18,808 nucleotides of DNA from a virus (IMGVR_UViG_2531839477_000015:1-18808); one strand, 5' to 3'; positions 6,235 through 16,614 are shown, numbered from the stretch's first letter. The notes: generated from the letters alone by a model not told the origin. Program-made: numbers and translations.

Positions 6235-6708
6235 CTAGAACGGAATATCCGAATCGTCAAAATCCATAGGTGGTTCGCTGTGATTCCCCTGCTGCTGAGA
6301 TTGCTGTCTTTGTTGCTGACCGTTATTTCGCTGAGGTGAAGACTGTTCATTGCCTCCTTGCTTGCCACCAAGCATTTTCATGGTTCCACCAACGCCCACG
6401 ATGACTTCGGTAGTGAACCTATCCTGTCCGCTTTGATCCTGCCATTTTCTTGTCCGTAATTTGCCTTCAAGATAAACCTCTGAGCCTTTTCGCAGATATT
6501 CGCTGGCAATTTCTGCCAGTTTCCCGCTCATTACCACGCGGTGCCACTCCGTCTGCTCCTTTTGCTCTCCAGTTTGCTTATCACGCCATTGTTCTGACGT
6601 AGCAACTGTAAGGTTTGCAAATGCCGTTCCTGATGGTGAATATCTGATTTCTGGATCATGCCCAAGGCGACCAATAATGATCACCTTATTTACGCCTCTA
6701 CTTCCCAT
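6235..6708 (-). CDS. ssb: Single-stranded DNA-binding protein
   Basis: N-terminus [23 protein letters not shown]...TEWHRVV, Gln/Gly-rich linker and C-terminal [12 protein letters not shown] tail, matching SSB. Confidence 0.93.
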
Positions 6709-7416
6709 TTATGCCGCCTGTTTTAGTTCGTTAACTCTGATGTTCATTACCTGAACGCATTTAGCCTGCGCCTCCTCGTTGCCAGCCATTAATTGCCAGT
6801 CACGCTGATAACGCTCGATGAGTTTTTTCTTGTCAGTTTCTGTTGATGCATAATCGCTGAAGTCTTTCAGGATTTGTTCGCAGTCAACCGATGGAGATTT
6901 CTGGTTGGTATTTTCTGGTGATGGTTTGTTATCTGATGCTGGGATTGCCCATCCCGGCAGCGATGGAGGGAGCCAGTAAAATCCTGTTCCATCCTTGAGT
7001 TTTGCCCTGTGCCATCCCTGCTTTTTATCGAGAGATGTTTGTGCGAAACCTTCCTCAAGGTTATACAGATACCGACCGATTCCCCACTGAACGGCAGCGC
7101 GCTTCATTGCACCGGAACGACCACCTTTGACGGCTTCTACCTGCGTGTTTTCAGCAGCATCCCATTTGGTTACCCATTCGGAATCAATCTTGATTGATAT
7201 GCCGCATTCAACTCCGCCGTTGTTGGGAATATCGCGGTATTCATTGCGCCATCCTGCTTTGCCGCAAACATCGTCCAGGCGTTTCATGATTGCCCTGTTC
7301 GTGACATAAGCCAGCACCATAGCCCACACCTTTCCATCGCGTGTTTTACCGCTTTGCTGTATTCGCCATTCGATATCTTCAGGGCTGAATGGCTCATCGA
7401 ATTTGTTCAAATCCAT
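6709..7416 (-). CDS. Rad52/22-type single-strand annealing protein (recombinase)
   Basis: Motifs NRAIMKRLDDVCGKAGW and GGRSGAMKRAAVQWGIGRYLY match the Rad52-family signature; sits directly upstream of ssb. Confidence 0.75.
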   Translation of the reverse strand: MDLNKFDEPFSPEDIEWRIQQSGKTRDGKVWAMVLAYVTNRAIMKRLDDVCGKAGWRNEYRDIPNNGGVECGISIKIDSEWVTKWDAAENTQVEAVKGGRSGAMKRAAVQWGIGRYLYNLEEGFAQTSLDKKQGWHRAKLKDGTGFYWLPPSLPGWAIPASDNKPSPENTNQKSPSVDCEQILKDFSDYASTETDKKKLIERYQRDWQLMAGNEEAQAKCVQVMNIRVNELKQAA

Positions 7417-10203: not shown

Positions 10204-10920
10204 TCAAACCAGCCTTAGTTTTGTCTCAATTGCAACGCCTATAATCTTGCAGTTTCCATTGATTGGCACGAGAGGCCATGCAGGATTAAGTCCCTTGAGG
10301 TATTTATTTCCGCCGTCGATTATCAGCTTCTTGAATGTTGCTTCGTTAGAGTCAGAAAGTTTTGCTATGACCAAGCTGCCGTTGATCGCCTCCCTTCCGG
10401 TATCGAAAAGAACGAATGTTCCCTCTGGAATGCTTAACCCAACCGGTGCCGTCATTGAATCACCTTCCACTTTAAGCCAGAACGCATTACCTTGAATATG
10501 CGCGTCAGACTCAAGCCAAACATCTATGTCTTTAATGGTGTATGGTTCGCATGCTTCACACCACGAGCCAGCCTGGATACTGCTTAACACCGGATACCTC
10601 TTTCCTGCTCTGTATTCCCCTGCATACCTTACGTTGGCATCGCTCTTAAGGCTTTCTGCCTGTTCTGCAACCTTGGCAGCAATTGACTGGCTAAAATCAG
10701 CAATTGAGACTTGCAACAGTCGTGCAAAACCAGATGCAACCTCAACGTTTAGCGCGTTTCTGCCATTAAGATAATGCCCTACCGCTCCTTGGGTGATACC
10801 CAGTTCATCCGCGATTGAGTATTGGGTTATCCCCAATTCTTTCTTTTTTGACTCATACAAAGCCTTAAGCCGCTTAGCGTCTTCGAGCTGTTCTGTCGTC
10901 AGTGATTTTTTATTTTCCAT
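10204..10920 (-). CDS. cI: CI-type prophage repressor (HTH + LexA/S24-like autocleavage domain)
   Basis: N-terminus LTTEQLEDAKRLKALYESKKKELGITQYSIADELGITQGAVGHY parallels lambda CI; C-terminal domain with conserved Ser/Lys context (WLKVEGDSMTAP ... TFKKLI); divergent from cro across the operators. Confidence 0.93.
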   Translation of the reverse strand: MENKKSLTTEQLEDAKRLKALYESKKKELGITQYSIADELGITQGAVGHYLNGRNALNVEVASGFARLLQVSIADFSQSIAAKVAEQAESLKSDANVRYAGEYRAGKRYPVLSSIQAGSWCEACEPYTIKDIDVWLESDAHIQGNAFWLKVEGDSMTAPVGLSIPEGTFVLFDTGREAINGSLVIAKLSDSNEATFKKLIIDGGNKYLKGLNPAWPLVPINGNCKIIGVAIETKLRLV

Positions 10921-11608: not shown

Positions 11609-11668
11609 GCACACTGTGTTACGCCAAGTAACAGGAGTAATTATGCCAGGACAAACCAAGCAAGTAAA
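11567..11668 (-). ncRNA. OOP-like antisense RNA (putative)
   Basis: Minus-strand hairpin CGUCCAG...CUGGGCG + UUUUUCUUUU inside the cII 3' end (plus about 11570-11600), analogous to the lambda oop terminator; possible promoter -35 TTGTCA (plus 11687-11692) and -10 TTTACT (plus 11663-11668). Confidence 0.3.
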
Positions 11669-12047
11669 CACCGGCATAAAGGCCGGTGACAAGTTCGAAA
11701 CCGTATATCCATTTATCTTCGTATGCACAGATTATCAGTCTTATGACGGCAACGTGCATACCGATGAGCGCTGGATTGGCGGTTGTCACAAAAATTATGA
11801 GCCAGCCGATTGTGGTTATGGTGATCAGTGTTTTTACACCGCTGATGCTGAAGGAAAGAGAATTCTTGAGGTTCTGGCAGTGGTGGAAATGCCAGGCAAC
11901 TGGCAGCGCAGAATCATTTATTCGTGCCACCTCATAGAGCCTGAAGGCAAGGAGAGGAAAGGAAGGAAGGCTTACACAGTCACCGAATCAAGGTTTTTAA
12001 AAATGTCTACTGGTTACTTCGCTGATTACGAAGTAGAGGAGGCTTAA
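11643..12047 (+). CDS. Hypothetical Cys-rich protein (134 aa) inserted between cII and O
   Basis: ATG 11643 with AGGAG 5 nt upstream (the track ORF is over-extended into cII); Cys/His-rich segment [40 protein letters not shown]; no family recognised. Confidence 0.6.
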
Positions 12048-12193
12048 TGACAAAACCACTCAGTCCTTACCAGGACAAAATTCACAAACACATACTACGT
12101 GATCGCTTCCTGTCCAGCTTCAAGCAGCCTGGTCGATTCCGGGCTGAGTTGGAAAAAGTGAAGCTGATGCAGAAGGAGAAAGGTCATGAGTAA
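12047..12193 (+). CDS. Small ORF (48 aa), translationally coupled
   Basis: Not in the track. ATG 12047 overlaps the upstream stop (TAATG) with GAGGAGG 5 nt upstream; translation [48 protein letters not shown]; 3' end overlaps the O-like start. Confidence 0.4.
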
Positions 12194-13046
12194 TCTTGCA
12201 ACCGTAACACATTTAAGGCCTTCACAACGGCCTGTGGAGCGTCGTGTGGCAGAAGTTGAAGATGGTTATACCCGTCTTGCAAATGCCCTGTATGAAGAGC
12301 TTATCGGCGCAGATTTAACGAAAAATCAGAGCAAGGTTGCCCACGCCATATGCCGTAAAACATACGGCTACGGTAAAAAGATGGATCGCATCTCTGATAG
12401 TCAGTTAGCTCAAATTACCAGGCTGCCAAGACAGAAGGTAAACAAGGCCAAGAATGAGCTTATCGCGATGAAGGTTATCCTTCGCGAAGGCCAGCAAATC
12501 GGGCCTAACAAGAACATCGAGGAATGGCAAATAGAAGGGTGTCACTACTCTGGTGATAATGTCACTGCATTGGTGACAAAAAGTGTCACCAAAACGGTGA
12601 CAGCGCTGTCACCAAAACAGGGACACACAAAAGAAACTATTACAAAAGAAAAAAGAAATAATAAAAACACTATGTCCGAAAGTGTTCGGACGGAGTGTGA
12701 AAAATCACATGACCGTCACGAAGAAACCGACAAGGCATTCGAGGAAATATTCTGGTGTGCAGGCATGCGGAAAGCCGGGAAGAAAAACGCAGCTTCGGCA
12801 TTCAGAACACAGTTCAGGGAATGGCGTAAAACTACCAGGGGTACGGCAAGCGAGTTTGCCACGATGCTGGCAGAAGACATCGCATGCAGGAATGGTAAGC
12901 AGTTCGGATTCGACAGGTTGTTACCATCGAGCTACCTGAACGGTCAACGCTGGAACGACGAGAAGCCAGAAACTATTCAACCACAATCCAAACCATCATC
13001 CGCAATCACCGTATCGAAAACTGGCTACGTGTTTTTCGACAGGTGA
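12186..13046 (+). CDS. Replication initiator, lambda O-like N-terminal domain with unrelated C-terminal domain
   Basis: N-terminal region [58 protein letters not shown]...GPNKNIEEW parallels lambda O; iterons inside the gene; C-terminal half not O-like. Confidence 0.85.
12551..12672. repeat. Putative ori: iteron cluster plus AT-rich tract inside the O-like gene
   Basis: Six alternating copies of GGTGACA/TGTCACC-type heptamers between 12551 and 12622 (tggtgataa, tgtcactgc, ttggtgacaaaaa, gtgtcaccaaaac, ggtgacagcgc, tgtcaccaaaac), followed by the A-rich tract 12628-12672. Confidence 0.6.
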
Positions 13047-13153
13047 ACCATGAAATCAAAAATCAAATCGCTACTGGTCGCTGGTTATAACCACGGCTGG
13101 TTAAGTATTTCGTTTGTCGATTTCTGGTTTAAAAATCTCAATCTGAGGGAATC

Positions 13154-13648
13154 ATGATGAGCCTTGAAGTTGGAGAATATATACCTGGTTATGAGGGTAA
13201 ATACTCTGTAACCAAAGACGGTCGTGTTTATTCACATTTAAGAGGCAGGTTTTTGAATCCATCTCCGGATAACAAGGGTTATCTAAGAGTCACTTTGTGT
13301 TCCGATGGGATTCAGAAGACGTTAAAAGTTCATCGTCTTGTAGCTCAATTATTTATCCCAAATCCGTATTGCAAGCCAGAAGTAAATCATATCAACGGCG
13401 ACAAATCGGATAACGCCATTTGGAACTTGGAATGGTGTACCTGCTCAGAGAATTTAAAACATGCTTTTAGCATCGGACTGAAAAGCGCAAAGGGAGTTTT
13501 TAATGGTAGGGCAAAACTATCTGAAACTGATGTGATTGATATCAGGAATTCTGTTGGTATGAAACTAAGCGAACTATCCACTAAATACGGAGTGAGTGAA
13601 ATGCAAATTTCCACAATCCGCAGAGGAAACGCATGGAGGCACCTTTGA
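13154..13648 (+). CDS. HNH homing-type endonuclease (NUMOD4-like N-terminus, HNH_3 core, C-terminal HTH)
   Basis: YIPGYEGKYSVTKDGRVYS...HRLVAQLFIPNP...VNHINGDKSDNAIWNLEWCTCSEN; by-eye AT-rich; sits between the O-like gene and the primase-helicase. Confidence 0.8.
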   Translation: MMSLEVGEYIPGYEGKYSVTKDGRVYSHLRGRFLNPSPDNKGYLRVTLCSDGIQKTLKVHRLVAQLFIPNPYCKPEVNHINGDKSDNAIWNLEWCTCSENLKHAFSIGLKSAKGVFNGRAKLSETDVIDIRNSVGMKLSELSTKYGVSEMQISTIRRGNAWRHL

Positions 13649-15525
13649 GTCCATCAGAACTTAGCGACCTGCTTTGGGCGCAGGTTGACAGGGTGGCTCC
13701 GCACCTGTTGCCAAACGGCAAGAAAGAGGGGCATGAGTGGGTTGCCGGTAACGTCAACGGTGACAAGGGAAACAGCCTTAAGGTCAACCTTAGCGGCAAG
13801 AAAAAATGGGCTGATTTCGCCGAGGGAGACGGCGGTGACATGCTTGATTTGTGGATGGCATGTCGTGGAATTAACCTGCATCAGGCTATGCAGGAAGCGA
13901 AAGCATTTCTCGGTATCAAGGATGACGATCACCATTTCGATGCCAAACGTGAGAAGAAATTCTCCAGACCTGATCGCAAGAAAATCGCCCGCTACGTTAC
14001 CAGGACAGAATCCCATCTTGAGTACCTGCAATCGCGTGGCATATCGCCAGAAGTCGTAAAGCGCTACGAGGTTGTCAGCGGCAAGGTGTGGAATGGAGAA
14101 CGAGAACTGGATGCTCTGGTGATTCCGTACAAACGCGATGGTGAGTTGTTGCAGGTCAAGCGAATCAGCACTGAGCGCTCGGACGGGAAGAAAGTCATTA
14201 TGGCAGAAGGTGATTGCGAACCTTGTCTGTTCGGATGGCAGGCTCTGGACGCTGGCGTGAGGGCGGTTGTACTTTGCGAAGGCGAAATTGATTGTATGAG
14301 CTATGCGCAATACGGCATCTCGGCGTTATCCGTGCCGTTTGGTGGCGGGAAAGGCGCTAAGCAACAGTGGATTGAGTTTGAGTATCACAACCTCGACAGG
14401 TTTGAGGAAATATTCATCTCGATGGACGTTGATGATGTTGGTCGTGAAGCCGCAAGGGAAATCGCAAGCCGACTCGGTGAACATCGTTGCCGTCTTGTTA
14501 CTCTGCCGTACAAGGACATCAACGAATGCCTGATGAACGGTGTTACCGAGGATGAAATCTGGCAGTACATCGGCACGGCATCCTACTTCGATCCTGAAGA
14601 ACTCTACAGCGCGCGAGAGTTTTACCAGGACACTATCAACGCTTTCTACGGCAAGCAGCAGTATCTGTTTAATCCACCGTGGGAATCTCTGGCAGATAAA
14701 TTCCAGTTCCGTGAGGCCGAGTTGACGCTGGTCAATGGTGTGAACGGTCACGGAAAAACGGAGGTTGTCGGGCATATGGCACTTGAGGCAATGCGTCAGG
14801 GGGTGAAGACGTGCATCGCGTCACTTGAGCTGAAGCCTGGTATTCTCCTTAAGCGCCTTACCCGTCAGGCAACGTGCTGCAAGATGCCGCCAGTGCTGGA
14901 AATTGACTCTGCATTTAAATTTTATGACGAAAGACTTTGGGTGTTTGGCCTGACCGGAACGGCGAAATCCGACAGGCTGATCGAAATATTCGACTACGCT
15001 CGCCGCCGATACGGGATCCAGTTATTCATCATCGACAGCCTGATGAAATGTGGCATAGGCGACGATGACTATAACGGGCAGAAGGCGTTTGTTGACTCGA
15101 TTTGCGACTTCAAAAACAAAACAAACTCCCACGTCATTCTCGTTACTCACTCGCGAAAAGGAGACAGCGAAGAAAAACCAACCGGGAAAATGGACGTAAA
15201 AGGCTCTGGAGCGATAACAGACCTGACAGACAACCTTTTCATCATCTGGCGTAACAAGGCTCGCGAGAGAGCGTTACAGAGAGTTCAGAGTGGTGAAAAG
15301 ATGTCAGAGAAGGACGAACAGCTACTGGCATCTCCGGCATCTGTTTTGATGCTTGAAAAACAACGTAACGGCGAAGGTTGGGAAGGTGGCGTCCCGTTGT
15401 TCCTTGACGAGCAATCGCACCAGTTCCTGCAACTTGAATCAGGATCGCCATATAGCTACATCGCCAATATGCCGAAATCGGAATATGACGAGGCGTGGCG
15501 ACAGGAAAACGTGACGGAGTATTAA
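13633..15525 (+). CDS. Bifunctional primase-helicase (Toprim primase + DnaB/SF4-like helicase)
   Basis: 630 aa; Toprim-like VVLCEGEIDCMS; Walker A LVNGVNGHGKTEV; Walker B-like LFIIDSLMK; occupies the lambda P position. Confidence 0.85.
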   Translation: MEAPLSPSELSDLLWAQVDRVAPHLLPNGKKEGHEWVAGNVNGDKGNSLKVNLSGKKKWADFAEGDGGDMLDLWMACRGINLHQAMQEAKAFLGIKDDDHHFDAKREKKFSRPDRKKIARYVTRTESHLEYLQSRGISPEVVKRYEVVSGKVWNGERELDALVIPYKRDGELLQVKRISTERSDGKKVIMAEGDCEPCLFGWQALDAGVRAVVLCEGEIDCMSYAQYGISALSVPFGGGKGAKQQWIEFEYHNLDRFEEIFISMDVDDVGREAAREIASRLGEHRCRLVTLPYKDINECLMNGVTEDEIWQYIGTASYFDPEELYSAREFYQDTINAFYGKQQYLFNPPWESLADKFQFREAELTLVNGVNGHGKTEVVGHMALEAMRQGVKTCIASLELKPGILLKRLTRQATCCKMPPVLEIDSAFKFYDERLWVFGLTGTAKSDRLIEIFDYARRRYGIQLFIIDSLMKCGIGDDDYNGQKAFVDSICDFKNKTNSHVILVTHSRKGDSEEKPTGKMDVKGSGAITDLTDNLFIIWRNKARERALQRVQSGEKMSEKDEQLLASPASVLMLEKQRNGEGWEGGVPLFLDEQSHQFLQLESGSPYSYIANMPKSEYDEAWRQENVTEY

Positions 15526-15554
15526 ATGACCATCTACATCACTGAGCTAATAAC

Positions 15555-15586
15555 AGGCCTGCAGGTAATCGCAGGCCTTTTTATTT
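15555..15586 (+). terminator. Intrinsic terminator (tR2-equivalent) after the replication genes
   Basis: Perfect 8-bp stem AGGCCTGC/GCAGGCCT (15555-15562 / 15571-15578), 8-nt loop, then TTTTTATTT. Confidence 0.8.
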
Positions 15587-15602
15587 GGGGGAGAGGGAAG
15601 TC

Positions 15603-16019
15603 ATGAAAAAACTAACCTTTGAAATTCGATCTCCAGCACATCAGCAAAACGCTATTCACGCAGTACAGCAAATTCTTCCAGACCCAACCAAACCAATCGT
15701 AGTAACTATTCAGGAACGCAACCGCAGCATTCGGCAAAATGCACGCCTTCACGCGATGCTATCTGAAATAAGTAAGAAGGCTACATATCATGGAAAAGCA
15801 AGAAATATTGAGTTTTGGAAGGGGTTATTCGTTTCTGGTTGGCAGATTGCAACCAACCAGCACCCTGAGATTATATCAGGGTTAGAAGGTGAGCTAATAA
15901 ACATCAGAGAGAGTACGGCGACTCTATCTGTAAAAAAAATATCCGAAATAATGGACTACATAGAAGCATATTGTGCCATGAACTCAATTCATCTTAGCGA
16001 ATGGAGGAATTATGATTGA
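15603..16019 (+). CDS. ninB: NinB (Orf-family recombination mediator)
   Basis: MKKLTFEIRSPAHQQNAIHAVQQILPDPTKPIVVTIQERNRS matches the lambda NinB N-terminus as recalled; remainder is a diverged homologue; the track start at 15585 is TTG. Confidence 0.85.
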   Translation: MKKLTFEIRSPAHQQNAIHAVQQILPDPTKPIVVTIQERNRSIRQNARLHAMLSEISKKATYHGKARNIEFWKGLFVSGWQIATNQHPEIISGLEGELINIRESTATLSVKKISEIMDYIEAYCAMNSIHLSEWRNYD

Positions 16020-16614
16020 GGTTTGGGTAGATATCGAAGGAATTCCATTTTATCAGGTTAGCAATAAAGGAAATTTCAGGTCTATTACGAGGGAAATTAC
16101 AGTAACATCAACCAGACAGAGGCCATATAAGAAAATAATTAATGGCACTAGCGTAAAACCATTCAAGTGCAAGTCGACAGGATATCTTCAAATAAAGGTA
16201 TACGGTAAGAAATACAGCGCCCACAGGATAGTTGCGAAAGCATTCTGTACAGGGTTCTGTGATGGCTTGGTAGTTAATCACAAAAATGGGCAAAGAGATG
16301 ACAATAGGGCTGAAAACCTTGAATGGGTATCTCATTCTGAAAACTCAAAGCACGGATATAAACAAAATGGAAGAATACCTATATCGCTAGGTAAATTTAG
16401 TGGTGATCATCCTGCCAGTAAAGCTGTTATTTCTACTGACATGAAAACTGGGGAGGAGGTTTATTATGAAGCAGCTATGGATGCTGTCAGAGAAGGATTT
16501 GATAGTTCGTCAATTAGTCGTTGCTGTAATGGCGAAAGCTCATATCACAAAGGAAGATTCTGGCGATTTGCAAATGAAACAATGAAAGCGAGATGGGGAG
16601 ATCGGGCTGCATGA
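16012..16614 (+). CDS. HNH homing-type endonuclease inserted at the ninB 3' end
   Basis: NUMOD4-like GIPFYQVSNKGNFRS and HNH_3 HRIVAKAF...VNHKNGQRDDNRAENLEWVSHSEN; AT-rich by eye; C-terminal KARWGDRAA equals the lambda NinB C-terminus as recalled. Confidence 0.8.
   Translation: MIEVWVDIEGIPFYQVSNKGNFRSITREITVTSTRQRPYKKIINGTSVKPFKCKSTGYLQIKVYGKKYSAHRIVAKAFCTGFCDGLVVNHKNGQRDDNRAENLEWVSHSENSKHGYKQNGRIPISLGKFSGDHPASKAVISTDMKTGEEVYYEAAMDAVREGFDSSSISRCCNGESSYHKGRFWRFANETMKARWGDRAA

Follow-up and report, generated by a model that had tools for sequence, protein, structure and literature searches.

A lambda-O-type initiator paired with a T7-like primase-helicase in the replication cassette of a lambdoid prophage

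How a lambda-type origin might be fired when the gene that follows the initiator encodes an enzyme rather than the loader P is the question raised by the viral stretch IMGVR_UViG_2531839477_000015:1-18808 (18,808 nucleotides, hereafter the window), which covers the early part of a P22/Sf101-like lambdoid prophage. Its replication genes form a cassette of the ES18 gp59-gp60-gp61 type, in which a lambda-O-type initiator of 286 amino acids (aa) is paired with a T7-like primase-helicase of 630 aa instead of lambda P. We consider it probable that the O-like initiator fires a lambda-type origin and that its non-lambda C-terminal domain and tail recruit the T7-gp4-like primase-helicase that the phage itself encodes. 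A preliminary description of this DNA had placed the replication module at 12186-15525, and its two reading frames hold, at 12186-13046 (286 aa) and 13633-15525 (630 aa). It also implied that the arrangement is novel, which it is not: the cassette is already known and common, and the same interpretation is found in the ES18 GenBank record of 2005, in which gp59 is "similar to phage lambda gpO", the origin is "similar to lambda ori", and gp61 is a "putative primase/helicase; similar to phage T7 gene 4". In E. coli, 166 complete genomes contain 80% or more of the DNA, and 2003 of 5426 contain at least part of it.

The cassette is present in isolated phages, among them Sf101, mEp043, and ES18. 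The whole of it is found at 98.4-98.9% nucleotide (nt) identity in Sf101 (gp43-gp45), mEp043, and vB_EcoP-720R6, and at 91.5% in SEN22; these four share with the window the DUF2740 gene, the initiator with the same iterons, a 35-aa open reading frame (ORF), and the primase-helicase, and differ in having no HNH gene at the primase-helicase start. ES18, and with it epsilon34 (gp50-52), g341c, and vB_SosS_Oslo, is the same as the window from the last iteron (12613) on, including the A-rich tract, with ES18 at 96% aa identity in the initiator C-terminal domain, 94% in the 35-aa gene, and 86.5% nt identity in the primase-helicase. In the ES18-type cassette the primase-helicase (about 625 aa) lies immediately downstream of the 35-aa gene, whereas in the window the two are split by the HNH gene. 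The same genes are listed for the Shiga toxin (Stx) phage replication type Eru5, with Stx2a_F403 as reference phage (PMC8951638). In Eru5 phages (Stx2a_F403, Min27, phi24B) the initiator C-terminal domain is the same as in the window at about 95% identity, and so is the primase-helicase at 97-98%, but the N-terminal DNA-binding domain of Min27 is HTH_36, not Phage_rep_O.

The lambda side of the cassette lies in the first half of the initiator. Residues 20-114 match Pfam Phage_rep_O (PF04492) with 128.8 bits (cutoff 28.7, E=1e-37), the protein matches TIGR01610 phage_O_Nterm with 105.4 bits (cutoff 45.5), and 49% identity to lambda O (aa 1-157, lambda O residues 1-155, BLASTP, E=2e-42) stands beside 45% identity to P22 gp18 (aa 1-158), which bears out the lambda O-like N-terminal DNA-binding domain of the preliminary description. 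The AlphaFold2 (AF2) model of the full-length initiator, with a mean predicted local distance difference test (pLDDT) score of 56, is folded as a winged helix at aa 20-115, disordered at aa 117-175, and helical at aa 179-251. The winged helix resembles those of the MarR/CRP type (Foldseek), and a Foldseek search of the PDB with the full-length model returned generic winged helices only (E about 0.05). The codons of the disordered stretch are those made by the origin itself, namely the iterons and the A-rich tract.

Four iterons with the consensus TGTCACnnnnnnGGTGACA, each copy carrying 0-2 mismatches, lie within 100 nt; among 300 Markov-1 simulated windows, none held more than one site per 100 nt. 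Their 20/24/23 spacing is that of the annotated lambda iterons, and their offset in the initiator gene is +354 nt vs +348 nt in lambda. The adjoining A-rich tract (12626-12666), judged by its sequence, is probably the unwinding element. The preliminary description had set iterons and A-rich tract at 12551-12672; their presence within the gene stands, but that start skips the first and weakest iteron, at 12540. A fifth iteron-like site (GGTAACGTCAACGGTGACA, 2 mismatches) at 13747-13765, inside the primase-helicase gene, was rejected as an origin element because one lone site fits chance (mean 0.16 sites per simulated window). The likeness to lambda thus covers the N-terminal domain, the four iterons with their spacing and place in the gene, the A-rich tract, and the origin-encoded disordered linker. 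The differences begin at the C-terminal domain, which is unrelated to that of lambda O as far as detection reaches, and extend to the partner, which in lambda is P, a loader that borrows host DnaB, and in the window, where P is absent, is an enzyme.

That the C-terminal half is unrelated to O, as had been claimed earlier, agrees with every comparison made. BLASTP finds no lambda O similarity past initiator residue 157, and hhalign gives a probability of 0.1% for the initiator C-terminus against lambda O. The PHROG families are disjoint (phrog_33384/270 for the window initiator, phrog_277/2357/391 for lambda O), and lambda O is missing among the BFVD fold matches of the C-terminal domain, which are the C-termini of phage replisome organizers. 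Pfam gave no match to the C-terminal half at E<=10, and a PDB sequence search with the initiator and a C-domain profile returned nothing meaningful. A first homologue search with the C-terminal fragment gave almost only truncated, near-identical proteins. At E<=1e-3, the family of the core domain (aa ~178-262, ~85 residues, consensus FExFWxAGMRKxxKxKA…QFGFDKLHPTTYLNGERWxDE) comprises 358 cluster representatives. Among 80 members sampled, the N-terminal half is HTH_36 (14), Phage_rep_O (10), DUF1376 (9), DnaD_N (5), Lin1244_N (4), or another winged helix, so that no fewer than five kinds of DNA-binding domain precede the core. The "non-O" C-terminus is therefore a widespread domain without a Pfam model, found in phage initiators that adjoin helicase or loader genes. 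Its more distant carriers adjoin DnaB-type helicases or DnaC/IstB-type loaders, which fits the helicase-recruiting role that we propose for the core.

The partner gene encodes a T7-gp4/Twinkle-type superfamily 4 (SF4) primase-helicase. Pfam identifies Toprim_2 at aa 213-300 (E=3e-12) and AAA_25/DnaB_C at aa 359-598, the protein belongs to PHROG 239 "DNA primase/helicase" (E=6e-171), and aa 196-543 match solved T7 gp4 structures (5ikn, 6n7i, 1q57) at E=1.8e-23 and Twinkle at 5.5e-14. The Toprim primase and DnaB-like helicase of the preliminary description are thus both found by domain searches, but the helicase belongs with T7 gp4 and Twinkle and not with DnaB proper: DnaB_C scores 23.8 bits, under the Pfam cutoff of 27, and the DnaB N-domain was not found. 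A P4 alpha/D5-type identity (superfamily 3, SF3) was rejected, as the helicase part matches only SF4 proteins (T7 gp4, Twinkle, AAA_25/DnaB_C). The further claim that the gene does not encode a DnaB loader is upheld, and the window as a whole contains no homologue of lambda P, of a DnaC-type loader, or of P22 gp12 (tblastn, E<=0.01).

When the protein is aligned with T7 gp4 and with three homologues that are 58-76% identical, the catalytic residues of both halves prove to be kept. The Toprim acids lie in EGEID (E218), DVD (D265, D267), and KDINEC (D295), which align with the T7 motifs, and the DnaG-type motifs "YLxxRGI" and "PYxRDGE" are retained in homologues down to 58% identity. The SF4 motifs comprise Walker A GVNGHGKT (369-376, K375), E399, Walker B LFIIDS (464-469, D468), and H506, and a DnaB/T7-type arginine-finger motif, KQRNGE (576-581), is conserved as well. 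We take the T7 gp4 equivalents of these residues to be E157, D207, D209, D237, K318, E343, D424, H465, and the arginine finger. The predicted helicase function is well supported by these motifs; a primase function is probable, with less certainty. T7 gp4 and Twinkle also share with the window protein the order of a region like a zinc-binding domain (ZBD), a DnaG-type Toprim primase, and an SF4 helicase. The differences are an identity of about 25%, the loss of the Cys4 zinc site, and a ~25-aa insertion before the arginine finger. The C-terminal tail (aa 617-630; 15481-15522) is acidic with an aromatic last residue (…EYDEAWRQENVTEY), is conserved in homologues, and aligns with the tail of T7 gp4, which in T7 binds the T7 DNA polymerase.

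Initiator C-terminus and primase-helicase travel together. The similarity shared with ES18 and the Stx phages sets in at 12613/12662, within either the last iteron or the A-rich tract, which makes the conserved A-rich tract the recombination joint between N- and C-terminal modules. Left of this joint the N-terminal domain and the iterons vary together and occur as a window type, a lambda type, and an HTH_36 type (Min27). A lambda-type N-terminus, 93-94% identical to lambda O, is found in three loci of the IMG/VR database and also in ES18 and epsilon34, where 94% identity to lambda O aa 17-148 has been described (PMC2629481). The N-terminus of the window is only 49% identical to lambda O and faces TGTCAC/GTGACA iterons, so its origin specificity is predicted to differ from that of ES18 and epsilon34. 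Right of the joint, the C-domain, the 35-aa ORF, and the primase-helicase are kept as a block behind at least three N-terminal domain types. The primase-helicase lies downstream in 79 of 80 IMG/VR loci with this C-domain, and the remaining locus stops at a contig edge. The same pairing occurs in Pantoea, Klebsiella, and Citrobacter prophages (initiators 69-74% identical), in phages Fraca and LMessi (C-domain 50-55%), and in Vibrio phage 1.135.O (about 44%).

These features suggest the following route. Using the N-terminal winged helix, initiator dimers would bind the four dyad iterons that lie in the initiator gene, as the homology to lambda predicts, and the resulting nucleoprotein complex would destabilize the adjoining A-rich tract; for lambda, binding of O to the iterons as dimers and the strain placed on the A-rich tract have been summarized (PMC6022878). 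The C-terminal helical domain and the short conserved tail would then recruit the phage hexameric primase-helicase where lambda O brings in P-DnaB, a step in which the 35-aa protein might take part. A ring of the T7 type is able to load itself on single-stranded DNA. The primase-helicase would unwind the DNA and probably prime it too, and synthesis would fall to the host polymerase III holoenzyme, which is proposed because the window contains no polymerase gene. The window enzyme would thus work at a lambda-type origin with an initiator and the host polymerase, whereas T7 gp4 works with a phage polymerase. From these comparisons we infer that the initiator touches the primase-helicase, that the enzyme has primase activity, and that replication runs independently of host DnaB, DnaC, and DnaG. 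The preliminary description had likewise implied replication with a helicase and primase of its own rather than with host DnaB via P, a reading that is supported with reservations on priming and on independence from the host.

Several points weigh against this reading. The searchable literature yielded no experimental study of how the cassette fires, and the co-inheritance of neighboring genes can stem from linkage and not from physical contact. The N-terminal part of the primase-helicase (205 aa) has no Pfam match at E<=10 and only a weak match to TIGR01391 (DnaG) at aa 30-147 (38 bits against a cutoff of 283), in which the zinc-ribbon spacing is kept but the ligands are not. A single Cys (C77) lies within aa 1-120, which indicates that the Cys4 zinc site is gone. 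Human Twinkle has also lost its zinc ligands together with its primase activity, and by the same token priming here may still need host DnaG. The phage protein might accordingly unwind from the origin with its primase part inactive or auxiliary while host DnaG primes, an account favored by the Cys-less ZBD-like N-terminus and by the TIGR01391 score far under its cutoff, and one reported for P22 gp12, to the extent that the title of Wickner (1984), cited in PMC8022706, names the E. coli DnaG primase in oligonucleotide synthesis with the P22 gene 12 protein. However, E218, D265, D267, D295, and the two DnaG-type motifs are conserved down to 58% identity, which argues for selection on catalysis, and we regard a helicase-only role as unlikely.

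The P22 gene 18/gene 12 pair resembles the window in the O-like N-terminus, the origin inside the gene, the preceding orf48/DUF2740 gene, and the use of a phage helicase instead of P. However, gp12 is annotated as DnaB-similar and has no primase, its match to the window protein is not significant (E=0.59), and the C-terminus of gp18 differs too.

A last point against the proposed recruitment concerns the core domain, which is met with several types of partner, including small unannotated proteins in some Vibrio and marine phages, so that the core alone does not specify a primase-helicase. Since initiators with the same core precede DnaC-like loaders or small proteins, the domain is not tied to the primase-helicase and might instead recruit host DnaB, directly or through host DnaC, leaving the phage enzyme to late rolling-circle replication, restart, or anti-defence. 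This division of labor seems improbable to us, given that tblastn found no loader gene in the window, that no second helicase-related gene occupies the replication position between cII and ninB, and that a single inherited block, made up of the "VF"-tailed C-domain, the 35-aa ORF, and the primase-helicase, stands behind at least three N-terminal domains. Recruitment of the phage enzyme by core and tail together therefore remains our preferred account.

The tail that follows the core (aa 273-286) is a candidate docking peptide. Such tails deserve attention because lambda O is proposed to bind P through its C-terminal region and the Oam205 amber allele leaves 294 of the 299 residues of O (PMC6022878). 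Lambda O ends in …TDWIYGVDL. The window initiator (…GYVFFDR) carries the motif of the ES18/Eru5 cassette type, ...TVSKxGYVFxDR. Across a wider set of 150 loci, post-core tails with "VF" (…TGYVFFDR; …SAEVFISQAAIDRMKRG…; …ANQVFVDYDAL…) are always followed by a large ORF (about 75 loci), which is 623-648 aa long where complete and is a primase-helicase in all three loci checked (Fraca, a Pantoea locus, and L132). Other core-domain initiators end in EVFISQ (Fraca-type phages), PDWMRG, IPxGFRG, or SSB-like DDDIPF/Y, named after the single-stranded DNA-binding protein (SSB), and this variety suggests interchangeable docking peptides. A simple tail-to-partner rule was rejected, as the PDWMRG type accompanies a primase-helicase in Vibrio 1.135.O but a DnaC-like loader in Skulduggery.

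Among these other core-domain initiators (P0192/P0194/P0197, P0239/P0271/P0274/P0281, and P0216/P0220/P0235; loci L096-L255), the SSB-like tails read …DDDIPY and …NIDIPF and stand beside …IPxGFRG and …PDWMRG. The …IPxGFRG tails resemble the C-terminus of E. coli DnaT. A viral-contig scan for relatives of the SSB-tailed initiator P0239 found none. A broader idea, which we put forward tentatively and with more doubt than confidence, is that core and tail form a general, uncharacterized device for recruiting helicases or loaders in which the tail picks the partner, with the 35-aa protein as a new accessory factor that would load a T7-gp4-type ring at a lambda-type origin.

The 35-aa ORF between initiator and primase-helicase is a real gene and a member of the cassette. 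It encodes 35 aa in six of seven loci compared (window, ES18, Pantoea, Citrobacter, Fraca, and LMessi; the Klebsiella version has 38 aa from an upstream GTG), its identity among cassettes ranges from 49 to 94% (the highest value being to ES18 gp60), and substitutions are biased to third codon positions. The protein carries the motif MK..hK.LLhAGYN+G.L..FV. In phages without the HNH insertion the stop of the gene overlaps the primase-helicase ATG. Gene callers leave the ORF uncalled in the Pantoea, Klebsiella, and Citrobacter loci. Neither this gene nor the HNH gene at the primase-helicase start nor the widespread nature of the "non-O" C-terminus figured in the preliminary description.

The HNH gene is a selfish, free-standing homing-endonuclease insertion and not a replication component. 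In the empty site of Sf101 the 35-aa ORF and the primase-helicase gene overlap, stop on start (…GGGAATCATGACGCCAAGTGAACTTAGC…), and relative to this site the window has 8 nt replaced by 499 nt (13158-13656); ES18 also shows an empty site. The original primase-helicase ATG is now used by the HNH gene, and a new in-frame ATG overlaps the endonuclease stop, which turns the N-terminus from MTPSEL into MEAPLSPSEL. Of 80 related IMG/VR loci, 5 carry the insertion, as do several complete E. coli genomes. The loss of the original start codon and the altered N-terminus might indicate that the endonuclease disturbed primase-helicase expression and that the cassette is a decayed remnant, which would also accommodate the partial primase-helicase matches in five IMG/VR loci described below. 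We consider this very improbable, because every ORF is unbroken and shares 98-99% identity with the isolated phages Sf101 and mEp043, the insertion itself supplies the new in-frame ATG, and the same insertion recurs in the 5 IMG/VR loci and the E. coli genomes.

Other selfish elements occur in the same gene. The Min27 primase-helicase (L257 1295-3877) carries a ~330-aa Hint and LAGLIDADG insertion, an intein, which splits Walker A between K375 and T376 (window ~14757/14758), and a split match pattern indicates that the Min27-type intein is probably also present in other Stx2 phages. Together, the HNH insertion and the Min27 intein make the primase-helicase gene look like a hotspot for selfish elements. 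Loci L006, L032, L042, L053, and L054 have near-identical cassettes in which primase-helicase matches are partial or displaced (231-375 aa), which suggests further insertions or disruptions.

The arrangement amounts to modular exchange at an origin, with DNA-binding specificity (N-terminus and iterons) and partner choice (C-terminus and helicase gene) reassorting independently. The Eru5 version of the cassette drives the replication of some Stx2a phages, although the practical relevance is modest. Should Eru5 phages need neither host DnaB nor host DnaG, the control of their replication, and with it the dosage of the toxin genes, would differ from that in the lambda/933W models. The features of the cassette are collected in Table 1.

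Table 1. Features of the replication cassette and its borders, in window coordinates.
Feature	Position	Strand	Remarks
DUF2740 gene, 48 aa	12047..12193	+	Pfam DUF2740 E=9e-29; 83% identity to P22 orf48; ES18 gp58 homologue
Replication initiator, 286 aa	12186..13046	+	Lambda-O-type N-terminal domain, origin-encoded disordered linker, non-lambda C-terminal domain and tail
Winged-helix origin-binding domain (aa 20-114), coding region	12243..12527	+	Phage_rep_O
Origin iterons, four 19-bp (base pair) imperfect dyads TGTCAC-N6/7-GTGACA	12540..12625	.	Starts 12540, 12560, 12584, 12607
A-rich tract	12626..12666	.	83% A+T, 71% A; almost base-for-base that of lambda
C-terminal helical core domain (aa 178-262), coding region	12717..12971	+	FExIFWxAGMRKxGKK...QFGFDxLxPxxYLNGxRWxDE; phrog_33384 E=6e-88; AF2 pLDDT 89.7
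Conserved C-terminal tail (aa 273-286), coding region	13002..13043	+	Conserved in homologue alignment
35-aa gene (ES18 gp60 homologue)	13050..13157	+	Conserved in compared loci
HNH/NUMOD4 homing-endonuclease gene	13154..13648	+	Pfam NUMOD4 and HNH_3
Bifunctional primase-helicase, 630 aa	13633..15525	+	ZBD-like aa ~30-75; RNA polymerase/Toprim aa ~130-300; SF4 aa ~355-585; tail aa 617-630
Terminator-like GC hairpin and T-run	15555..15588	+	Consensus scan only; directly past primase-helicase stop, at nin-region boundary

The surroundings of the cassette are those of a lambdoid early region. The leftward genes include an integrase (1419-2489), a phage SSB (6235-6708), and an Erf-like annealing protein (6709-7416), and the immunity region holds cI (10204-10920, minus strand), cro, and cII. 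In the early-left operon (6235-7416, minus strand) the SSB ends in DFDDSDIPF and its gene adjoins that of the Erf-like annealing protein. With an SSB in the window, the phage would provide initiator, helicase-primase, and SSB; no polymerase is encoded there. The rightward order is DUF2740 gene, O-like initiator, 35-aa ORF, HNH endonuclease, 630-aa protein, NinB, a second HNH endonuclease, and Dam; the last is assigned by Pfam, and further rightward ORFs were judged RusA- and Q-like by eye. Overlapping the initiator start with its 3′ end, the DUF2740 gene also precedes the initiator in Sf101 and in the Klebsiella and Citrobacter prophages, and thus travels with the cassette. A consensus scan found no lambda-like oop promoter/terminator arrangement. 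Lambda homology picks up again at 15526.

Two further ORFs near the cassette look like additions. Between cII and the DUF2740 gene lies a 134-aa ORF (11643-12047) that belongs to phrog_30464 and has no Pfam match; Sf101 has only a 34-nt gap at this position, which makes the ORF look like a moron-like insertion. A second NUMOD4/HNH (I-HmuI-like) endonuclease gene (16012-16614) sits between ninB and the Dam methyltransferase gene, so that the early-right operon holds two free-standing homing endonucleases; Sf101 lacks this second gene, and there ninB overlaps the methyltransferase gene.

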